Below are positions 5,588 through 13,059 of a DNA stretch of 13,620 bases, piece after piece. The notes below the pieces were generated by a model. That model was not told the origin of the DNA, searched no databases, and saw nothing but the letters and a program-made list of their open reading frames with translations. The stretch lies in IMG/VR virus record IMGVR_UViG_2565956608_000003; one strand, given 5' to 3'. The stretch comes from a virus. Its lineage: Duplodnaviria > Heunggongvirae > Uroviricota > Caudoviricetes. A program made the translations under genes and the position numbers. Position 1 is the stretch's first letter. The number at the start of each line of letters is the position of its first letter.

Positions 5588-6805
5588 ATGAAACTTCATG
5601 AGATGAAGCAAAAACGAAACACCATTGCAAAGGATATGCGTGCACTGCATGAAAAAATTGGTGATAACGCATGGACTGATGAGCAACGGGCAGAGTGGAA
5701 CAGGGCGAAAGCTGAGCTGGATGCGCTGGATGAGCAAATCGCCCGTGAAGAAGAGTTGCGCCGTCAGGATCAGGCATATGTGGATGAGTCCGGGCCGGAA
5801 GAGCGCCAGAATAATGAGGCGGAGAACGGGAAAAAGGCGGTGGAAGAGAAGCGCGCTGCGGCATTTAACCGTTTTCTGCGTGCCGGATTTGCAGAACTGA
5901 ATGCTGAAGAGCGTAATCTGATGCGTGAACTGCGGGCTCAGAGTGTAACAACGGATTCTCAGGGCGGATATACGGTGCCCACGCAGATGCGTAACAAAAT
6001 CATTGACACCATGAAGGCTTATGGCGGGATTGCCAGTGTGGCGCAACTTCTGACCACATCAACCGGGCAGGATATCACCTGGTCAACGTCTGATGGCACG
6101 ACTGAAGAGGGCGAACTGCTGGCGGAAAATACAGCCGCAACGGAACAGGATGTGACGTTCGGGACCGCTATTCTGGGGGCTAAAAAGCTGTCATCAAAAA
6201 TAATTCGTGTGTCCAATGAGCTGCTCCAGGACAGTGGGGTGGATATTGAATCTTATCTGGCAAACCGTATTGCCCAGCGTATTGGTCGTGGAGAGGCAAA
6301 ATATCTGGTTCAGGGGACCGGAACGGGATCACCGTTACAGCCAAAAGGGCTGGCAGCGTCGGTGACGGGAACCATCCAGACTGCAGCCTCTGCCGCTTTC
6401 ACCTGGAAAGAAATGAATGCCCTGAAACATGCCATTGATCCGGCATATCGTGGTGGGCCGAAATACCGCTGGGCATTCAATGATGCCACATTGCAGACTA
6501 TTGAAGAGATGGAGGATGGACAGAAACGCCCGTTATGGCTGCCGGATATTGCAGGCGGTACGCCGGCTACTGTGCTGGGGATCCCTTATGTTATTGATCA
6601 GGCTATTGACGGGATTGGTACCGGAAAAAAATTCATTTTCCTGGGGGATTTCAACCGCTTTATCATTCGCCGCGTTACTTATATGGAACTGAAACGTCTG
6701 GTTGAGCGTTATGCTGAGTTTGATCAGGTGGCATTTCTGGCTTTCCATCGTTTTGACTGTGTGCTGGAAGATGTGGCAGCCATCAAGGCGCTCACTGGCA
6801 AATAA
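5588..6805 (+). CDS. Major capsid protein (HK97 fold) with N-terminal scaffolding delta domain
   Basis: 405-aa ORF; the N-terminal ~100 aa are charged and coiled-coil-like (ELDALDEQIAREEELRRQDQ...), typical of a delta domain, followed by a capsid-like body; directly follows the protease. Confidence 0.9.
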   Translation: MKLHEMKQKRNTIAKDMRALHEKIGDNAWTDEQRAEWNRAKAELDALDEQIAREEELRRQDQAYVDESGPEERQNNEAENGKKAVEEKRAAAFNRFLRAGFAELNAEERNLMRELRAQSVTTDSQGGYTVPTQMRNKIIDTMKAYGGIASVAQLLTTSTGQDITWSTSDGTTEEGELLAENTAATEQDVTFGTAILGAKKLSSKIIRVSNELLQDSGVDIESYLANRIAQRIGRGEAKYLVQGTGTGSPLQPKGLAASVTGTIQTAASAAFTWKEMNALKHAIDPAYRGGPKYRWAFNDATLQTIEEMEDGQKRPLWLPDIAGGTPATVLGIPYVIDQAIDGIGTGKKFIFLGDFNRFIIRRVTYMELKRLVERYAEFDQVAFLAFHRFDCVLEDVAAIKALTGK

Positions 6806-6826
6806 CCACTCGTTGTTCAGTTACAG

Positions 6827-6848
6827 ACCGCGCCGACGCGGTTTTTTT
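6827..6848 (+). terminator. Rho-independent terminator-like hairpin after the capsid gene
   Basis: aCCGCG-ccga-CGCGGt stem-loop followed by T7 (6842-6848), 22 nt after the capsid stop. Confidence 0.55.
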
Positions 6849-6881
6849 ATGCCCGCACAGTGTTGCGGGCAGGAGTTTCTG

Positions 6882-7199
6882 ATGGCAGCAATAGTGGAAA
6901 AACTCAGGGCGCAGTGCCGTATTGATACAGATGATGCAACTGATGATGAGTTACTGATGCTGTATTTCCGGGCTGCCTGCCGCAAGGCAGAAAATTTTAT
7001 CAACCGTAAGCTTTATGAGGAGACGGTGCCAGAAGGTGATCCTGAAGGGGTGCTTATAGCTGATGATGTTTTGCTGGCGCTCATGTTGCTGGTCGGGCAC
7101 TGGTACGAAAACCGGGAAAATTCCTCAGATGTCAGCAAGGCACCAGTCCCGTTTGGTTTTTCTTCTCTTCTGGAGCCTTATCGTTTTATTCCTTTGTAG
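6882..7199 (+). CDS. Head-tail connector protein (HK97 gp6-like)
   Basis: Track ORF 6702..7199 begins inside the capsid gene and spans the terminator; the realistic start is ATG 6882 with AGGAG 6871-6875 six nt upstream; ~105 aa, first gene after the capsid as in HK97-type modules. Confidence 0.7.
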   Translation: MAAIVEKLRAQCRIDTDDATDDELLMLYFRAACRKAENFINRKLYEETVPEGDPEGVLIADDVLLALMLLVGHWYENRENSSDVSKAPVPFGFSSLLEPYRFIPL

Positions 7200-7207
7200 G
7201 AGGAGAC

Positions 7208-7992: not shown

Positions 7993-8333
7993 GGGAGGGC
8001 ACACTGTATTCCCTGTTGTCTCAGCTGGCCGGAGGACAGGTTTATCCTTATGTGGTCCCGCTGACGGAGGGAAAGCCTGCGGTATCTCCGCCGTGGCTGG
8101 TGTTTTCTGTGGTGTCTGACACGGCATCTGATGTGCTTGATGGGCAGGCTGAATCCAGAATTACCGTGCAGATCGATGTCTGGGCGACAGTACCTGATGA
8201 CGCAGATAATATTCGTGAGCAGGCGCTTGATGCGGTAAGAAAACTGGCACCCTCCGTTATTTCTAAAACGCAGGGGTATGATCCTGACTCCCGTCTGAGC
8301 AGAGCCACGCTTGAATTTCAGGTAATAGCCTGA
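7989..8333 (+). CDS. Tail terminator / tail completion protein (lambda gpU analogue)
   Basis: 114-aa ORF overlapping the upstream gene by ATGA; immediately precedes the major tail gene. Confidence 0.6.
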   Translation: MREGTLYSLLSQLAGGQVYPYVVPLTEGKPAVSPPWLVFSVVSDTASDVLDGQAESRITVQIDVWATVPDDADNIREQALDAVRKLAPSVISKTQGYDPDSRLSRATLEFQVIA

Positions 8334-8352
8334 GGTCGTTAATGATTTACCC

Positions 8353-8375
8353 ACCCGCCGCTGGCGGGTTTTTTT
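8353..8375 (+). terminator. Rho-independent terminator-like hairpin upstream of the major tail gene
   Basis: aCCCGCC-gct-GGCGGG followed by T7 (8369-8375), then AGGAG and ATG 8393. Confidence 0.55.
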
Positions 8376-8392
8376 ATTTTCAGGAGACGAGT

Positions 8393-9097
8393 ATGTCCTC
8401 TAATTTTGAGCGTTCGCAACTGACGAAAATTATGATTTCGTCTGCACCGGTAACAGCAGAAACCCTGGATTCTGCCAGCTATCTTGGCCTGAGCTGTACA
8501 ATCAAAGAGGTGCAGTTTACCGCAGGACAAAAGCAGGATATTGATGTCACCACGCTGTGTTCTGTTGAGCAGGAAAATATTAACGGCCTTGGGGCTGCTT
8601 CAGAGATTTCCATGTCAGGCAACTTTTATCTGAATGCTGCCCAGAACGCGTTGCGCAGTGCCTATGACAATGACACCACGTATGGCTTTAAAGTTATTTT
8701 TCCGTCAGGCAACGGATTTACCTTTATGGCAGAGGTGCGTCAGCATACCTGGTCTGCAGGAACCAATGGTGTTGTGGCTGCAACGTTTTCCCTGCGTCTG
8801 AAAGGTAAACCTGTGCTGACGACAGAGCCGCTGAAAGTGAAGGTCGATTTAAAAAGCACGCTGCGGGTTTCTTCCGGAGCGAAACTTGAAATGGCGGTTG
8901 AGGCTGCGGGGGGTGTGCCGCCTTATTCTTATGCCTGGAAAAAAGGTGGTTCTCCTGTTTCCGGACAGACGGCGGCAACGTTCAGTAAGGCATCAGCAGC
9001 ATCCGGTGATGCCGGTGCGTATACCTGCGAGATTTCTGATTCAGCAAGCCCTGTTAACAAGGTGACCTCCACTTCCTGCACTGTAACCGTCAGTTAA
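8393..9097 (+). CDS. Major tail (tube) protein with C-terminal Ig-like domain
   Basis: Track ORF 8342..9097 reads through the hairpin; realistic start ATG 8393 (AGGAG 8382-8386, 6-nt spacer). C-terminal ~90 aa (PPYSYAWKKGGSPVSGQ...GAYTCEISDSA...CTVTVS) looks like an Ig-like module, as on lambda gpV. Confidence 0.8.
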   Translation: MSSNFERSQLTKIMISSAPVTAETLDSASYLGLSCTIKEVQFTAGQKQDIDVTTLCSVEQENINGLGAASEISMSGNFYLNAAQNALRSAYDNDTTYGFKVIFPSGNGFTFMAEVRQHTWSAGTNGVVAATFSLRLKGKPVLTTEPLKVKVDLKSTLRVSSGAKLEMAVEAAGGVPPYSYAWKKGGSPVSGQTAATFSKASAASGDAGAYTCEISDSASPVNKVTSTSCTVTVS

Positions 9098-9111: not shown

Positions 9112-9483
9112 ATGACTAAAAATATCCGTAATCTGGCACTGGCAACGATGTCGGGGTTTCGCCATAAAACCGTTGATGTGCCTGAATGGGAGGGAGCAAC
9201 GGTTGTGTTACGGGAACCTTCTGCAGAAGCCTGGTTGCGCTGGCAGGAGATCGTTAAAGCAAAAGATGATGAGACACCGTTATCCGTTGCGGAGCGCGCC
9301 CGCCGAAATCTGGAGGCAGATGTTGAACTGTTCATTGATGTTCTGTGTGATACCGGACTGCAACCCGTATTTTCAGAGGATGATCGTGAACAGGTGATTG
9401 CCGTGTATGGCCCGGTGCATGCGCGGCTTCTTCGGCAGTCTCTGGAACTGATCAGTGATGCCGGCGAGGTTAAAAAAAAGTAG
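9112..9483 (+). CDS. Tail assembly chaperone (lambda gpG analogue)
   Basis: ORF between major tail and tape measure genes; likely start ATG 9112 (GAGGA 9099-9103) rather than 9097; ends ...GEVKKK-TAG directly on an A-rich slippery site. Confidence 0.8.
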   Translation: MTKNIRNLALATMSGFRHKTVDVPEWEGATVVLREPSAEAWLRWQEIVKAKDDETPLSVAERARRNLEADVELFIDVLCDTGLQPVFSEDDREQVIAVYGPVHARLLRQSLELISDAGEVKKK

Positions 9484-9785
9484 CGCTTCCGGGGATGCGT
9501 TTTCTGATGATGCTGGCGCTCAGGATGGGGCGCACATTGTCAGAGTTACGCCGGGAAATGTCCGCATCAGAAATCATGATGTGGGCAGAATTTGACAGGT
9601 TCAGCCCGCTGGGTGACGAGCGGGCTGATATCCGGGCTGCCCAGATTGTTTCAGCTGTTTACGGTGCGCAGGGGGTCAAAGTGCCACTGAATGATGCGCT
9701 TCTTCAGTGGGAGCAGGAGCAGACAGAAGGCGTCTCAGATCCATTTGCCGGACTGGAAAACGCGCTTTTAATAGTGTCTCAGTGA
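9112..9785 (+). CDS. Tail assembly chaperone frameshift fusion (lambda gpGT analogue), by -1 slip at 9474-9480
   Basis: The -1 frame is closed by TAA at 9471-9473 and opens exactly at the heptamer A-AAA-AAG, then runs stop-free to 9785; ATG 9495 has no SD, arguing against independent initiation. Confidence 0.7.
9474..9480 (+). other. Slippery heptamer A-AAA-AAG (programmed -1 frameshift site)
   Basis: Read directly from the sequence; zero-frame stop TAG follows at 9481-9483. Confidence 0.7.
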
Positions 9786-9793
9786 GTCAACAT

Positions 9794-9815
9794 AACCGCT
9801 TCGGCGGTTTTTTTT
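9794..9815 (+). terminator. Rho-independent terminator-like hairpin between GT and the tape measure gene
   Basis: AACCGC-ttcg-GCGGTT stem with a UUCG-type tetraloop, followed by a T-run to 9815. Confidence 0.6.
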
Positions 9816-9825
9816 CGTCCGGAGA

Positions 9826-12800
9826 ATGAGTGTGGCGACATTACGTGAACTGATTATTAAAATCTCGGCAAATTCCCGGTCATTCCAGTCAGAGATCTCC
9901 CGGGCTTCGCGTATGGGGCAGGATTACTACCGTACCATGCAGAACGGAGGCCGACAGTCCGCTGCTGCATCCCGTGAAATGCGGCGTGCACTGGCAGAAG
10001 TGACGGATCAGATAAATACAGCTAAATCTTCGGCACTGAACATGGCGGGGGCATTTGCCGGGGCTTTTGCTACCGGTCATCTTATTTCTCTCGCCGATGA
10101 GTGGAATTCAGTAAATGCCCGTCTGAAGCAGGCCTCACAGTCCAGTGATGATTTTCAGTCATCACAGCGTGAATTAATGGCGATCAGCCAGAGAACGGGG
10201 ACGGCTTTTTCTGATAACGCCAGCCTTTTTGCCCGCTCTGCAGCTTCCATGCGGGAGTATGGTTACAGTTCTGAGGAGGTACTGAAAGTCACCGAGGCGA
10301 TCTCCACGGGCCTGAAATTATCCGGTGCCAGTACAGCAGAAGCCAGTTCGGTGATCACGCAGTTCAGTCAGGCTCTGGCGCAGGGAGTGCTGCGCGGTGA
10401 AGAGTTTAACTCGGTGAATGAGAACGGCGATCGTGTTATTCGTGCTCTGGCTGCGGGAATGGGAGTTGCCCGTAAGGATCTGAAGGCCATGGCGGATAAC
10501 GGAAAGTTGACCGCCGATAAGGTTGTTCCTGCACTGATTAGTCAGCTTGGGGCATTACGTGATGAATATGCGGCAATGCCTGATACGGTTTCATCCTCTG
10601 CAACCAAAGTTGAAAACGCCTTTATGGCCTGGGTTGGTGGTGCGAACGAGGCAAGCGGAGTGACGAAGACGCTCTCCGGTGTGCTGAATGGTATTGCAGG
10701 CAATATTGACACCGTGGCAACCGCTGCCGGTGCTCTGGTTGCCGTCGGGGTAGCCCGATATTTTGGCAATATGGCGTCGTCTGCTGGATCTGCAACTGCC
10801 GGATTAATTACTGCAGCCAGAAACGAAGTGGCTCTTGCTGAAGTGCAACTTCGGGGGACACAGATAGCAACCGCCAGGGCGCGTGCGGCGGTTTATCGTG
10901 CGCAACAGGCGGTTGTTGCTGCTCGCGGTACCGAAAGGCAGGCCGCAGCAGAAGCGAAGCTGACAGCTGCCCAGGTGTCACTTACCCGTAATATTGCGGC
11001 CAGAACAGCGGCACAGACAACGCTGAATAATGTTACGTCAGTGGGGAGTCGTTTATTAAGTGGCGCGCTGGGGCTGGTTGGTGGTGTGCCGGGACTCGTC
11101 ATGCTGGGGGCTGCGGCCTGGTACACGATGTATCAGAATCAGGAGCAGGCCAGAGAATCTGCACGCCAGTATGCCGCAACAATCGACGAAATTCGCCAGA
11201 AAACGTCGGCAATGTCGCTTCCTGAAGCGTCAGATAATGAGGAAAAGACGCGACAGGCACTGAAGGAGCAAAACAGGTTAATTGACGAGCAGAAAAGTAA
11301 GATTAAATCCTTACAGGAAAAAATTGCTGGCTATCAGTATGTGCTGGCAAACCCGGGCTGGACAACCGATAACGGTTTTATGATTAACCACATGACGTCG
11401 GTAAAAACTGTCACAGAAGGGCTTGCAGAAGCAACAAATCAACTGGCAGTTGAACAGTCTCGCCTCACTCAAATGCAGGGCAAAGCGCAATCCATTCAGG
11501 ATGTGCTTGCCGGGCTGGAGGAGCGACGGGTGGCGTTGATCCGTCAACAGGCAGCGGAACAAAACAAAGCGTATCAGTCCCTGTTGATCATGAATGGGCA
11601 GCATACCGAGTTTAATCGCCTTCTCGGGCTCGGTAATGAATTACTTCAGCAGCGACAGGGGCTGGTGAATGTACCGTTACGGCTACCACAGGCAACCCTG
11701 GATGATAAACAGCAGACCGCACTGAATAACAGCGAGCGCGAACTGGCTCTGTCCCGCCTGAAGGGGGAAGCTCGTGAGCGTGCCCGCCTGGGTTATGCTG
11801 CGGATGATCTCGGCTTTGTGGGAGAGGCGTATCAGACAGCAAGACTGAATTATATAAATAACTCACTGGATGCATGGCGAAATAACCAGGCAAATAAACC
11901 CAAAGCGCATAAAAAGACCGAAGCGGAAAAAACAGAGGATATTTATAAACGGCTGATTAAACAGCAAAAAGAACAGATAGCACTGGCAGGGCAGAATACT
12001 GAACTGGCTAAGATGAAATATCAGGTCAGTCAGGGCGAATTATCAACCCTGTCAGAAGCGCAGAAAAAAACGCTTTTGCAGAATGCAGCACTTATCGACC
12101 AGAAAAAGATTCGTGAGCAGCTTGCTGCGTATGAGAGCAGTCTGGCGGACAGTAATGCCAGTGTCAGAGCATCAAATGAGGCTCAGTTACTGGGATATGG
12201 TGAAGGCTCACGGATGCGTGAACGACTTCAGGAAATGTGGAGCATCCGGCAGGAGTTTGAGCAGAAAAATAACGAGCTACTGAGACAGTATCAGGCCGGA
12301 GAAATTGAAGAAGCCCTGTGGAAACAGGAGAAAGAGCTGAATAAAAAATATCTGGAAGAGCGTCTCAGCGATCAGCAGGATTATTATGCAAAGGCTGATG
12401 CTTTACGCAGTAACTGGAATGCCGGGCTCAAAGAGGGGCTGACGAACTGGGCAGACAGTGCCACCGATTATGCTTCGCAGGCGGCAGATGCTGTCGTTTC
12501 CACGATGGACGGGCTGGTATCAAATATTTCCGATGCACTGGCCGGGAATGTTGTGGACTGGAGGAACTGGGGGAGTTCAGTTCTCCGGGAAGTTTCAAAA
12601 ATTCTGATGAATGCAGCCATTGTTAACGGACTGAAATCACTCTCCGGTGCCGGAGGGTGGCTTGGTACGGTCGGCGGATGGATTTCGGGGGCAGTGGCAA
12701 ACGCAAAAGGTGGTGTTTACACATCGGCAAATCTGAGTGCGTACAGCAACAGCATTGTGGACACGCCCACGTACTTTGCGTTTGCAAAAGGGGCCGGGCT

Positions 12801-13059
12801 GATGGGGGAAGCCGGACCTGAAGCCATTATGCCCCTGACCCGGGCGGCGGATGGCTCGCTGGGCGTACGCGCGGTGGGCAGTATGAACGGCAGTGCCGGT
12901 CTGGTGTATTCCCCGGTCTACCACATCGCCATTCAGAATGACGGGGCTAACGGACAGATAGGGCCGGAGGCGGCAGGCAGTCTTGTGCAGCTGATTGACC
13001 AGCGGGTGCAGGCGGTGATGCTGTCCATGCGACGTGACGGAGGAATGCTGAGTGGCTGA
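9826..13059 (+). CDS. Tail tape measure protein (lambda gpH-like C-terminus)
   Basis: 1077-aa ORF after the chaperone pair; Gly/Ala-rich hydrophobic segments near the N-terminus and centre, long coiled-coil-like middle, C-terminus (HIAIQNDGANGQIGPEAAG...RRDGGMLSG) resembling recalled lambda gpH. Start could be ATG 9826 or in-frame GTG 9832 (better spaced from GGAG 9821-9824). Confidence 0.9.
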   Translation: MSVATLRELIIKISANSRSFQSEISRASRMGQDYYRTMQNGGRQSAAASREMRRALAEVTDQINTAKSSALNMAGAFAGAFATGHLISLADEWNSVNARLKQASQSSDDFQSSQRELMAISQRTGTAFSDNASLFARSAASMREYGYSSEEVLKVTEAISTGLKLSGASTAEASSVITQFSQALAQGVLRGEEFNSVNENGDRVIRALAAGMGVARKDLKAMADNGKLTADKVVPALISQLGALRDEYAAMPDTVSSSATKVENAFMAWVGGANEASGVTKTLSGVLNGIAGNIDTVATAAGALVAVGVARYFGNMASSAGSATAGLITAARNEVALAEVQLRGTQIATARARAAVYRAQQAVVAARGTERQAAAEAKLTAAQVSLTRNIAARTAAQTTLNNVTSVGSRLLSGALGLVGGVPGLVMLGAAAWYTMYQNQEQARESARQYAATIDEIRQKTSAMSLPEASDNEEKTRQALKEQNRLIDEQKSKIKSLQEKIAGYQYVLANPGWTTDNGFMINHMTSVKTVTEGLAEATNQLAVEQSRLTQMQGKAQSIQDVLAGLEERRVALIRQQAAEQNKAYQSLLIMNGQHTEFNRLLGLGNELLQQRQGLVNVPLRLPQATLDDKQQTALNNSERELALSRLKGEARERARLGYAADDLGFVGEAYQTARLNYINNSLDAWRNNQANKPKAHKKTEAEKTEDIYKRLIKQQKEQIALAGQNTELAKMKYQVSQGELSTLSEAQKKTLLQNAALIDQKKIREQLAAYESSLADSNASVRASNEAQLLGYGEGSRMRERLQEMWSIRQEFEQKNNELLRQYQAGEIEEALWKQEKELNKKYLEERLSDQQDYYAKADALRSNWNAGLKEGLTNWADSATDYASQAADAVVSTMDGLVSNISDALAGNVVDWRNWGSSVLREVSKILMNAAIVNGLKSLSGAGGWLGTVGGWISGAVANAKGGVYTSANLSAYSNSIVDTPTYFAFAKGAGLMGEAGPEAIMPLTRAADGSLGVRAVGSMNGSAGLVYSPVYHIAIQNDGANGQIGPEAAGSLVQLIDQRVQAVMLSMRRDGGMLSG

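Follow-up and report, generated by a model that had tools for sequence, protein, structure and literature searches.

A hairpin with the anatomy of a standard terminator at the chaperone/tape measure junction of an HK97-type prophage, and its likely role

By its anatomy, the hairpin that separates the tail chaperone genes (G/GT) from the tail tape measure protein (TMP) gene in the 13,620 nucleotide stretch of phage DNA analysed here (the window) is a canonical Rho-independent (intrinsic) terminator; that transcription ends at this site we infer from this anatomy. It is an ordinary, already known kind of element, and records of the HK97 family have carried a terminator annotation at this position since 2000. 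Its most likely role would be to stop unmodified RNA polymerase in the lysogen and to be overridden by the antiterminator Q in lytic growth. The most interesting by-product of the analysis is an accessory-gene hot spot whose terminator behaves like a piece of the phage backbone.

The window belongs to a lambdoid E. coli prophage of HK97 type and is its late region, with genes arranged in the order HNH endonuclease, terminase, portal, protease, major capsid, connectors, major tail, G/GT, TMP. The HNH endonuclease gene (870-1220) lies directly upstream of the gene for the small terminase subunit (P27 family), which is the usual order in HK97-like packaging modules. The window is 98-99% identical to phages vB_EcoS-689R5, PhiR49_2, Evi and phi467. 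Of 5426 complete E. coli genomes, 877 (~16%) have its GT/TMP junction, in every case on the chromosome. The relevant features are the following:

6825-6844, + strand: third hairpin, AGACCGCG-CCGA-CGCGGUUU followed by U7, 20 nt after the major capsid stop at 6805
8353-8369, + strand: second hairpin, ACCCGCC-GCU-GGCGGGU followed by U7, between the tail-completion stop at 8333 and the major tail start at 8393
9112-9483, + strand: tail assembly chaperone G (Pfam Phage_TAC_1, E = 2.4e-58)
9474-9480, + strand: slippery heptamer A AAA AAG, -1 frameshift giving GT (read from the sequence)
9495-9785, + strand: T segment of the GT frameshift product, ending with TGA at 9783-9785 (Pfam Phage_tail_T, E = 3.1e-19)
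9794-9809, + strand: terminator hairpin AACCGC-UUCG-GCGGUU (read from the sequence, kept in relatives, with covariation among cargo-less junctions)
9808-9815, + strand: U-tract of 8 T, overlapping the 3′ arm of the hairpin without a spacer
9821-9824, + strand: Shine-Dalgarno (SD) sequence GGAG of the TMP gene, 7 nt before GTG 9832
9832-13059, + strand: TMP gene (N-termini of homologues align to the GTG start)

The open reading frame starting at 9495 is in the -1 frame relative to G, and a -1 frameshift is annotated at the homologous gene in the HK97 record. Positions 9472-9480 consist of eight A followed by G, and the heptamer lies just before the G stop codon TAG (9481-9483). The longest reading frame of the TMP gene begins at an in-frame ATG at 9826, merely 1 nt after GGAG. 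This ATG is too near the SD sequence, homologues start with M-A-T-L-R-E-L, and the PGAP and GenBank annotations agree on GTG 9832, which is therefore almost certainly the start codon. In some close relatives the equivalent of the GTG is replaced by ATG (GAGAATGGCG). With the start at 9832 the gap between GT and TMP measures 46 nt, and not the 40 bp given in the preliminary description, which had correctly placed the hairpin in this gap.

The T-segment stop codon is followed by 8 nt (GTCAACAT) and then by the hairpin, whose arms and loop are AACCGC (9794-9799), TTCG (9800-9803) and GCGGTT (9804-9809), exactly the hairpin with a UUCG-type loop that had been noticed before the TMP gene. The stem has 6 bp, with four G-C pairs, and is closed by a C(UUCG)G tetraloop. 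The run of eight T described earlier is there, but only six of them lie beyond the stem, the first two being paired with AA at the stem base. Since the U-tract begins within the 3′ arm, there is no spacer. This arrangement, a hairpin followed by a U-tract without a spacer, is the ‘standard’ terminator geometry (PMC9388147); the hairpin-spacer-U-tract geometry of the hypothetical ‘Q-dependent’ non-standard terminator (PMC9388147) was not found at the site. Among near-identical prophages the length of the T-run varies from 7 to 9. On its 3′ side the T-run is followed by CGTCC, then GGAG, then the TMP start. The hairpin lies on the coding strand, in the orientation of the transcription unit, after the T stop (9785) and before the TMP start; on the reverse strand no U-tract follows the stem.

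The isolated hairpin has a predicted stability of -8.5 kcal/mol (z = -2.3 to -3.1 against shuffled sequences), and 3-4 of 200 shuffles folded as well. In a context of 71 nt its fold was unexceptional (z = -0.29), and it is the weakest hairpin among its peers, at about -8 versus -10 to -12 kcal/mol. A scan of the whole window with a loose terminator consensus revealed no enrichment (18 sites versus 13.6 ± 4.2 expected). Under a strict definition (six or more Watson-Crick pairs in the stem, four or more of them GC, a loop of 3-7, then at least six T) the window has exactly three sites, 6827-6842, 8354-8368 and 9794-9809, each of them intergenic and on the + strand. When the sequence was shuffled 300 times with dinucleotides preserved and both strands were scored, the mean number of strict sites was 0.003, and no shuffle had three. 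Rfam 15 gave no match at the gathering threshold on either strand of the whole window. We also considered an SD-sequestering alternative fold of the attenuator or riboswitch type, in which CUUCGGCGG pairs with CCGGAG containing the SD sequence. This pairing is the minimum-free-energy structure only in the window-type sequence and is absent in L003, L258, L089, L126, L247, L096, L026 and L088 (L numbers denote surveyed loci, see below); the candidate was rejected, being absent from other lineages.

The two other hairpins, 6825-6844 and 8353-8369, lie upstream of the one at 9794 and, as stated in the preliminary description, have the orientation of the operon (+ strand). In the late operon of HK97 four ‘putative terminators’ are annotated: one after the major capsid gene (gp5), one on each side of the major tail gene and one before the TMP gene. 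Three of these four positions are occupied by hairpins in the window, thus the pattern reported earlier for the window had already been annotated in the family. GenBank records ON470583 and PV340570 begin the major tail gene at an ATG that corresponds to window position 8342, which places hairpin 8353-8369 inside the reading frame. ATG 8393 is backed by PGAP and by an AGGAG at 8382-8386, and its product has 234 aa, the same as HK97 gp12; with the start at 8393 and not at 8342, the second hairpin is intergenic. The terminator upstream of the major tail gene was kept in 84 of 90 variants, across major-tail identities down to 50%. Directly after the post-capsid terminator there is a tandem hairpin, GCCCGCA-CAGTGT-TGCGGGC (6851-6870), which lacks a T-run and lies just upstream of the ribosome binding site of the next gene (ATG 6883), so that one gap of 77 nt contains two hairpins. 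In lambda (L265) the sole hairpin with T7 in the first 20 kb (GCCGC-CTGT-GCGGC TTTTTTT) lies between D and E, the major capsid gene; downstream of E there is a hairpin with a UUCG loop but no clean T-run. E, which encodes the most abundant protein, thus has hairpins on both flanks (6101-6121 and 7160-7200). Between T and H of lambda there is no gap.

Conservation of the junction was surveyed in 245 loci encoding relatives of the TMP N-terminus, collected from IMG/VR and from one genome per species; the diversity was supplied by a scan of genome contigs and by two scans that used divergent queries. In each locus the T stop and the start of TMP were located, which gave 96 distinct TMP-proximal sequences. 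The hosts include Escherichia, Klebsiella, Enterobacter, Leclercia, Serratia, Pantoea, Brenneria and Pseudomonas, among others. A hairpin with a T-run ending 12-24 nt upstream of the TMP start was present in 90 of the 96 distinct junctions, and these pre-TMP hairpins have ~25 different stem sequences. Elsewhere in the surveyed loci the background of the scanner was 0.56 sites per kb, about 4% per 75-nt window. By this survey, the pre-TMP and pre-major-tail terminators are near-universal in this tail-module family, with cargo genes or without.

The six exceptions are L241, L093, L195, L090, L102 and L144. Two of them carry cargo on the minus strand, L241 with a hairpin at the T stop instead and L093 without any. 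In L241 this is a strong hairpin (1969-1995), followed by the minus-strand cargo gene. L195, an IMG/VR prophage, has an IS5-like transposase gene between the hairpin and TMP (~685-1653 of the gap), an insertion that probably inactivates tail gene expression. In the cargo-less L090 the hairpin is present, and the U-tract has decayed. The gaps of L102 and L144 (13-22 nt) are too short for a hairpin, and Proteus phage Pm34, which has the same tail module, has no hairpin before TMP. As some relatives with the same tail module thus lack the hairpin (L102, L144, Pm34) or have it decayed (L090), TMP dosage seems to be independent of it. HK022, tried as a cargo-less comparator, was uninformative: it has a different tail module and a 19-nt gap with no hairpin.

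The position of the window hairpin corresponds to the slot of the HK97 moron gp15. In HK97, mEpX1 and HK446 a gene encoding the 62-aa gp15 lies between GT and TMP, and is followed by the annotated terminator ACCCGC-TATCAA-GCGGGT plus T8. Gp15 is a superinfection-exclusion protein expressed from the prophage and is the founding example of a moron (PMC3594210); morons are expressed from repressed prophages through promoter and terminator elements (PMC3594210). In the window the slot is empty. The 46-nt gap contains no open reading frame and is too short to leave room for a promoter; a promoter scan of the part upstream of the hairpin, which comprises the 8 nt after the T stop, gave nothing. The window junction has the 3′ terminator of a moron, and neither the extra gene nor a promoter of its own.

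Most of the surveyed junctions contain AT-rich inserts of 125-2029 nt (30-46% GC), which encode more than 20 unrelated families of proteins of 61-322 aa, nearly all on the + strand and mostly small membrane proteins, lipoproteins and secreted proteins. The GT/TMP junction is an accessory-gene hot spot in HK97-type tail modules. Among the kinds of cargo there are gp15/YebO-like proteins, a zinc-ribbon protein with two transmembrane segments, lipoproteins or secreted proteins, KilA-N/Bro-like and HNH-type proteins and an IS element; the matches are mostly to PHROGs of unknown function. Examples among loci L001-L257 are L026 (2060-2500), L075 (2050-2500), L079 (1975-2500), L083 (2098-2500) and L213 (~2 kb). 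The hairpin lies downstream of nearly all + strand cargo and is absent before TMP in both junctions with minus-strand cargo. Promoter scans of the cargo inserts of L026 and HK97 gave nothing above shuffle expectation.

The window hairpin is identical to the one that always accompanies a cargo gene for a zinc-ribbon membrane protein of 110-114 aa (L026, L081, L088 and others). L026 is homologous to the window (96%) up to 9748 and again from 9794, the first base of the hairpin, which is therefore a mosaic boundary. Comparison of window 9748-9794 with L026 (2023-2468) and L061 (1985-2501) placed one boundary of the cargo cassettes in the last 12-22 codons of T, and the other exactly at the hairpin in L026 and at the start codon of TMP in L061. 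Because the boundaries lie inside the 3′ end of T, the C-terminus of T has been exchanged together with the cargo. The multi-gene inserts of L211, L202 and L213 have two terminators, one after the T stop and one before TMP (within ~40 nt of each end), an arrangement which, together with that of L241, suggests that cargo can enter either upstream or downstream of a terminator already resident there.

Ten cargo-less junctions were aligned (window type, Stx1/2851 phages, Stx2a_F349, Serratia phage OS31, and Serratia, Pantoea and other prophages). Their intergenic region of 32-47 nt consists of the stop codon, the hairpin, the U-tract and the SD sequence only, and in several of them the stop codon abuts or overlaps the stem. 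In this alignment, a small set of related sequences, 98.3% of the cells were paired, and three of the six pairs had changes on both sides. None of 500 shuffles reached the observed covariation score, and shifted registers collapsed. Phage 2851 (AACCGC/GCGGTT) and Stx2a_F349 (AACCTGC/GCAGGTT) differ by a compensatory inserted pair, and the sequence downstream is identical. At ~72% DNA identity, the window and the Stx1 phages agree in the U-tract and in each of the 12 stem bases, whereas the loop (TTCG versus TGAG) and the 8-nt upstream spacer differ. These comparisons show that the hairpin, together with its U-tract, is under purifying selection even where there is no cargo gene. As the U-tract is conserved as well, and a stabilising hairpin needs none, the selected property would be termination itself.

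Prophages with a junction 99-100% identical to that of the window encode a Q antiterminator (PF06530, E = 1.4e-52), which belongs to the Q21 family (PMC9388147). The Q gene was found in these identical-junction prophages, the window itself beginning downstream of the lysis genes. In PhiR49_2 and in the SCU-116 prophage, whose junctions are 100% identical, the layout is the classic lambdoid one, with Q on the strand of the lysis and structural genes and upstream of them. RNA polymerase loaded with Q keeps hairpins from forming and in this way passes standard hairpin/U-tract terminators processively (PMC9388147). Given the standard anatomy of the element and a Q21-type cassette ~13 kb upstream, a stop in the lysogen and read-through after induction are to be expected. 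We therefore favour, with a confidence slightly above even, the interpretation of the element as a Q-overridable terminator or insulator, which would double as the 3′ end of any cargo gene residing in the slot. Prophage Hfq-binding small RNAs of the EcOnc and Pas families, considered as another candidate, map to the Q/pR′/lysis region and not to the GT/TMP junction, and were rejected.

In the proposed mechanism, when an unmodified polymerase pauses on the 8-U tract, the C(UUCG)G-capped hairpin would form in the exit channel, and the transcript would be released at about 9812-9816. In the lysogen, transcription coming from upstream, either from the promoters of cargo genes (morons) or stray and leaky, would be stopped, and TMP and the distal tail genes would stay silent. 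After induction, polymerase loaded with the Q21-family antiterminator at pR′, ~13 kb upstream, would read through, so that the hairpin would have little effect on TMP dosage. When transcribed, the hairpin may double as a barrier to 3′ exonucleases for the major-tail/G/GT message. Termination, Q read-through at this site and a benefit in lysogeny are all steps that we infer from sequence comparison. The conserved terminator before the major tail gene points the same way, as it would be tolerable only if overridden in lytic growth. Against the insulator interpretation count the empty slot of the window, which has no known upstream promoter to insulate against, the weakness of the hairpin relative to its peers and the few relatives that do without one. 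A literature search found no RNA-seq study of HK97-type late operons; Term-seq data of EHEC Sakai (GSE143631, PMC7547250) cover homologous hairpins, which in the lambda-like Sp prophages read AACCGC-TGAG-GCGGTT plus U7.

The preliminary description had proposed that the hairpin attenuates late transcription in lytic growth: a fraction of the transcripts would end here, the TMP and distal tail genes would be transcribed less than those of the major tail protein and the chaperones, and the three hairpins would form a graded ladder. What stands of this proposal is an element of terminator type in operon orientation; as a device for stoichiometry we consider it unlikely. The terminator is modest (-8.5 kcal/mol, 6-bp stem), as a leaky one would be, it precedes the gene of a low-copy protein, its conservation in cargo-less junctions speaks for a function independent of morons, and the late clusters of SPP1 and other siphophages are bounded by terminator-like stem-loops (PMC6316719). 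However, late transcription in these prophages depends on a Q21-family protein, and Q processively prevents terminator hairpins from forming (PMC9388147). The equally conserved terminator (84/90) directly upstream of the major tail gene would be counter-productive, since attenuation there would cut the most abundant tail protein relative to the low-copy connectors, the opposite of a stoichiometric gradient; in lambda, too, the only hairpin with T7 in the first 20 kb precedes E, the major capsid gene. The hairpin is absent from some relatives that have the same tail module, and the site is the gp15 moron slot, where the hairpin follows + strand cargo and is missing before TMP when the cargo is on the minus strand. 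A small residual attenuation at the hairpin may nevertheless take place during lytic growth.

There are two further explanations. If the hairpin, terminating or not, served RNA stability, blocking 3′-to-5′ exonucleases after downstream cleavage, the major-tail/G/GT message would outlive the message of the distal tail genes. Terminator stems protect RNA 3′ ends, according to work cited in PMC4104026, and hairpins flank the cistrons of abundant proteins (after the major capsid and before the major tail gene in the window, on both sides of E in lambda), in HK97 and mEpX1 including a stem-loop without a T-run after the major tail gene. The ~300-nt T segment would gain from a 3′ barrier, being presumably largely ribosome-free because only frameshifted ribosomes translate it. 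A pure stability hairpin would need no U-tract, but the U-tract is conserved with the hairpin in nearly all junctions, and we regard this explanation as quite improbable. The hairpin could also be a functionless relic, the terminator left over from a zinc-ribbon membrane-protein moron whose promoter and gene were lost or recombined away. Its identity with the hairpin of that cargo and the exact resumption of L026 homology at 9794 fit such an origin, as do the decayed U-tract of the cargo-less L090 and the relatives without a hairpin. The compensatory changes in cargo-less junctions argue against a mere relic: divergent cargo-less lineages keep the hairpin along with its U-tract in minimal intergenic regions, and relative to the Stx1 phages (~72% identity) the 12 stem positions and the U-tract were kept while the loop and the spacer were not. 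This makes the relic explanation very unlikely.

The preferred interpretation, a terminator that Q overrides, can be extended to the cargo genes. Because it is kept under selection in several cargo-less lineages, the hairpin behaves as phage backbone and not as imported DNA. On this extension, which is possible but doubtful, the terminator would be a backbone element older than the adjacent morons; overridden by Q in lytic growth and stopping ordinary polymerase in lysogens, it would offer cargo a ‘safe harbour’. A gene inserted with a promoter between the T stop and the hairpin could then be expressed in the prophage, with no read-through into the tail genes. If true, this would account for the gathering of more than 20 unrelated cargo families at one junction, and the ‘moron terminator’ of HK97 gp15 would belong to the phage and not to the moron. 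If the terminators are Q-overridable insulators, this would explain how structural operons can be silent in lysogens and yet host expressed accessory genes, and the terminators would be convenient markers for finding such genes. The gain in annotation is small, a standard terminator being added where records of the HK97 family already mark one; the survey is modestly useful in that it found near-universal terminators even without cargo, and a GT/TMP junction rich in prophage accessory genes.

The closest known counterpart is the ‘putative terminator’ of HK97 (8398-8422 in NC_002167) downstream of gp15, which matches the window element in position, orientation and its CCCGC-type stem with a direct U-tract. 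A ‘rho-independent terminator’ is annotated at the equivalent spot in mEpX1, HK446, HK633 and mEp234. As in the window, the terminator of the HK97 family lies 12-24 nt upstream of a homologous TMP gene and downstream of a homologous G/GT, and belongs to the same set of late-operon hairpins. In HK97, however, it follows the 62-aa gp15, whereas in the window the T stop is followed by the hairpin with no gene in between. The stems differ by a compensatory A-U to C-G change, and the loops are UAUCAA in HK97 and UUCG in the window. The moron units (a concept of Juhala and Hendrix; PMC3594210) are represented in the window by the archetypal chaperone/TMP site and by the terminator half. Unlike them, the window lacks a cargo gene and the space for a promoter, and the hairpin persists in cargo-less lineages.

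Of the regulatory terminators, the lambdoid tR′ is likewise a standard hairpin with a U-tract in a Q-dependent late unit (PMC9388147, PMC7547250). It lies directly after pR′ and is the regulatory switch itself, whereas the window element is ~13 kb downstream, inside the structural operon, and its role is putative. The insulator terminator of Tn916 (PMC11658703) also belongs to a mobile element, here a conjugative one, and has been proposed to block leaky or premature expression of the genes beyond it in the quiescent state and to be overridden by antitermination; as element, host and position differ, the likeness is functional only.

In T7, T-phi is a partial terminator located after the major capsid gene, inside the structural cluster. 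T7 T-phi and the terminators of SPP1 (PMC6316719) resemble the window element as operon-oriented terminators inside a cluster, near genes of abundant structural proteins, and they provide a precedent for attenuation; the late genes of T7 and SPP1, in contrast to those of the lambdoid phages, are not transcribed with a processive Q complex.
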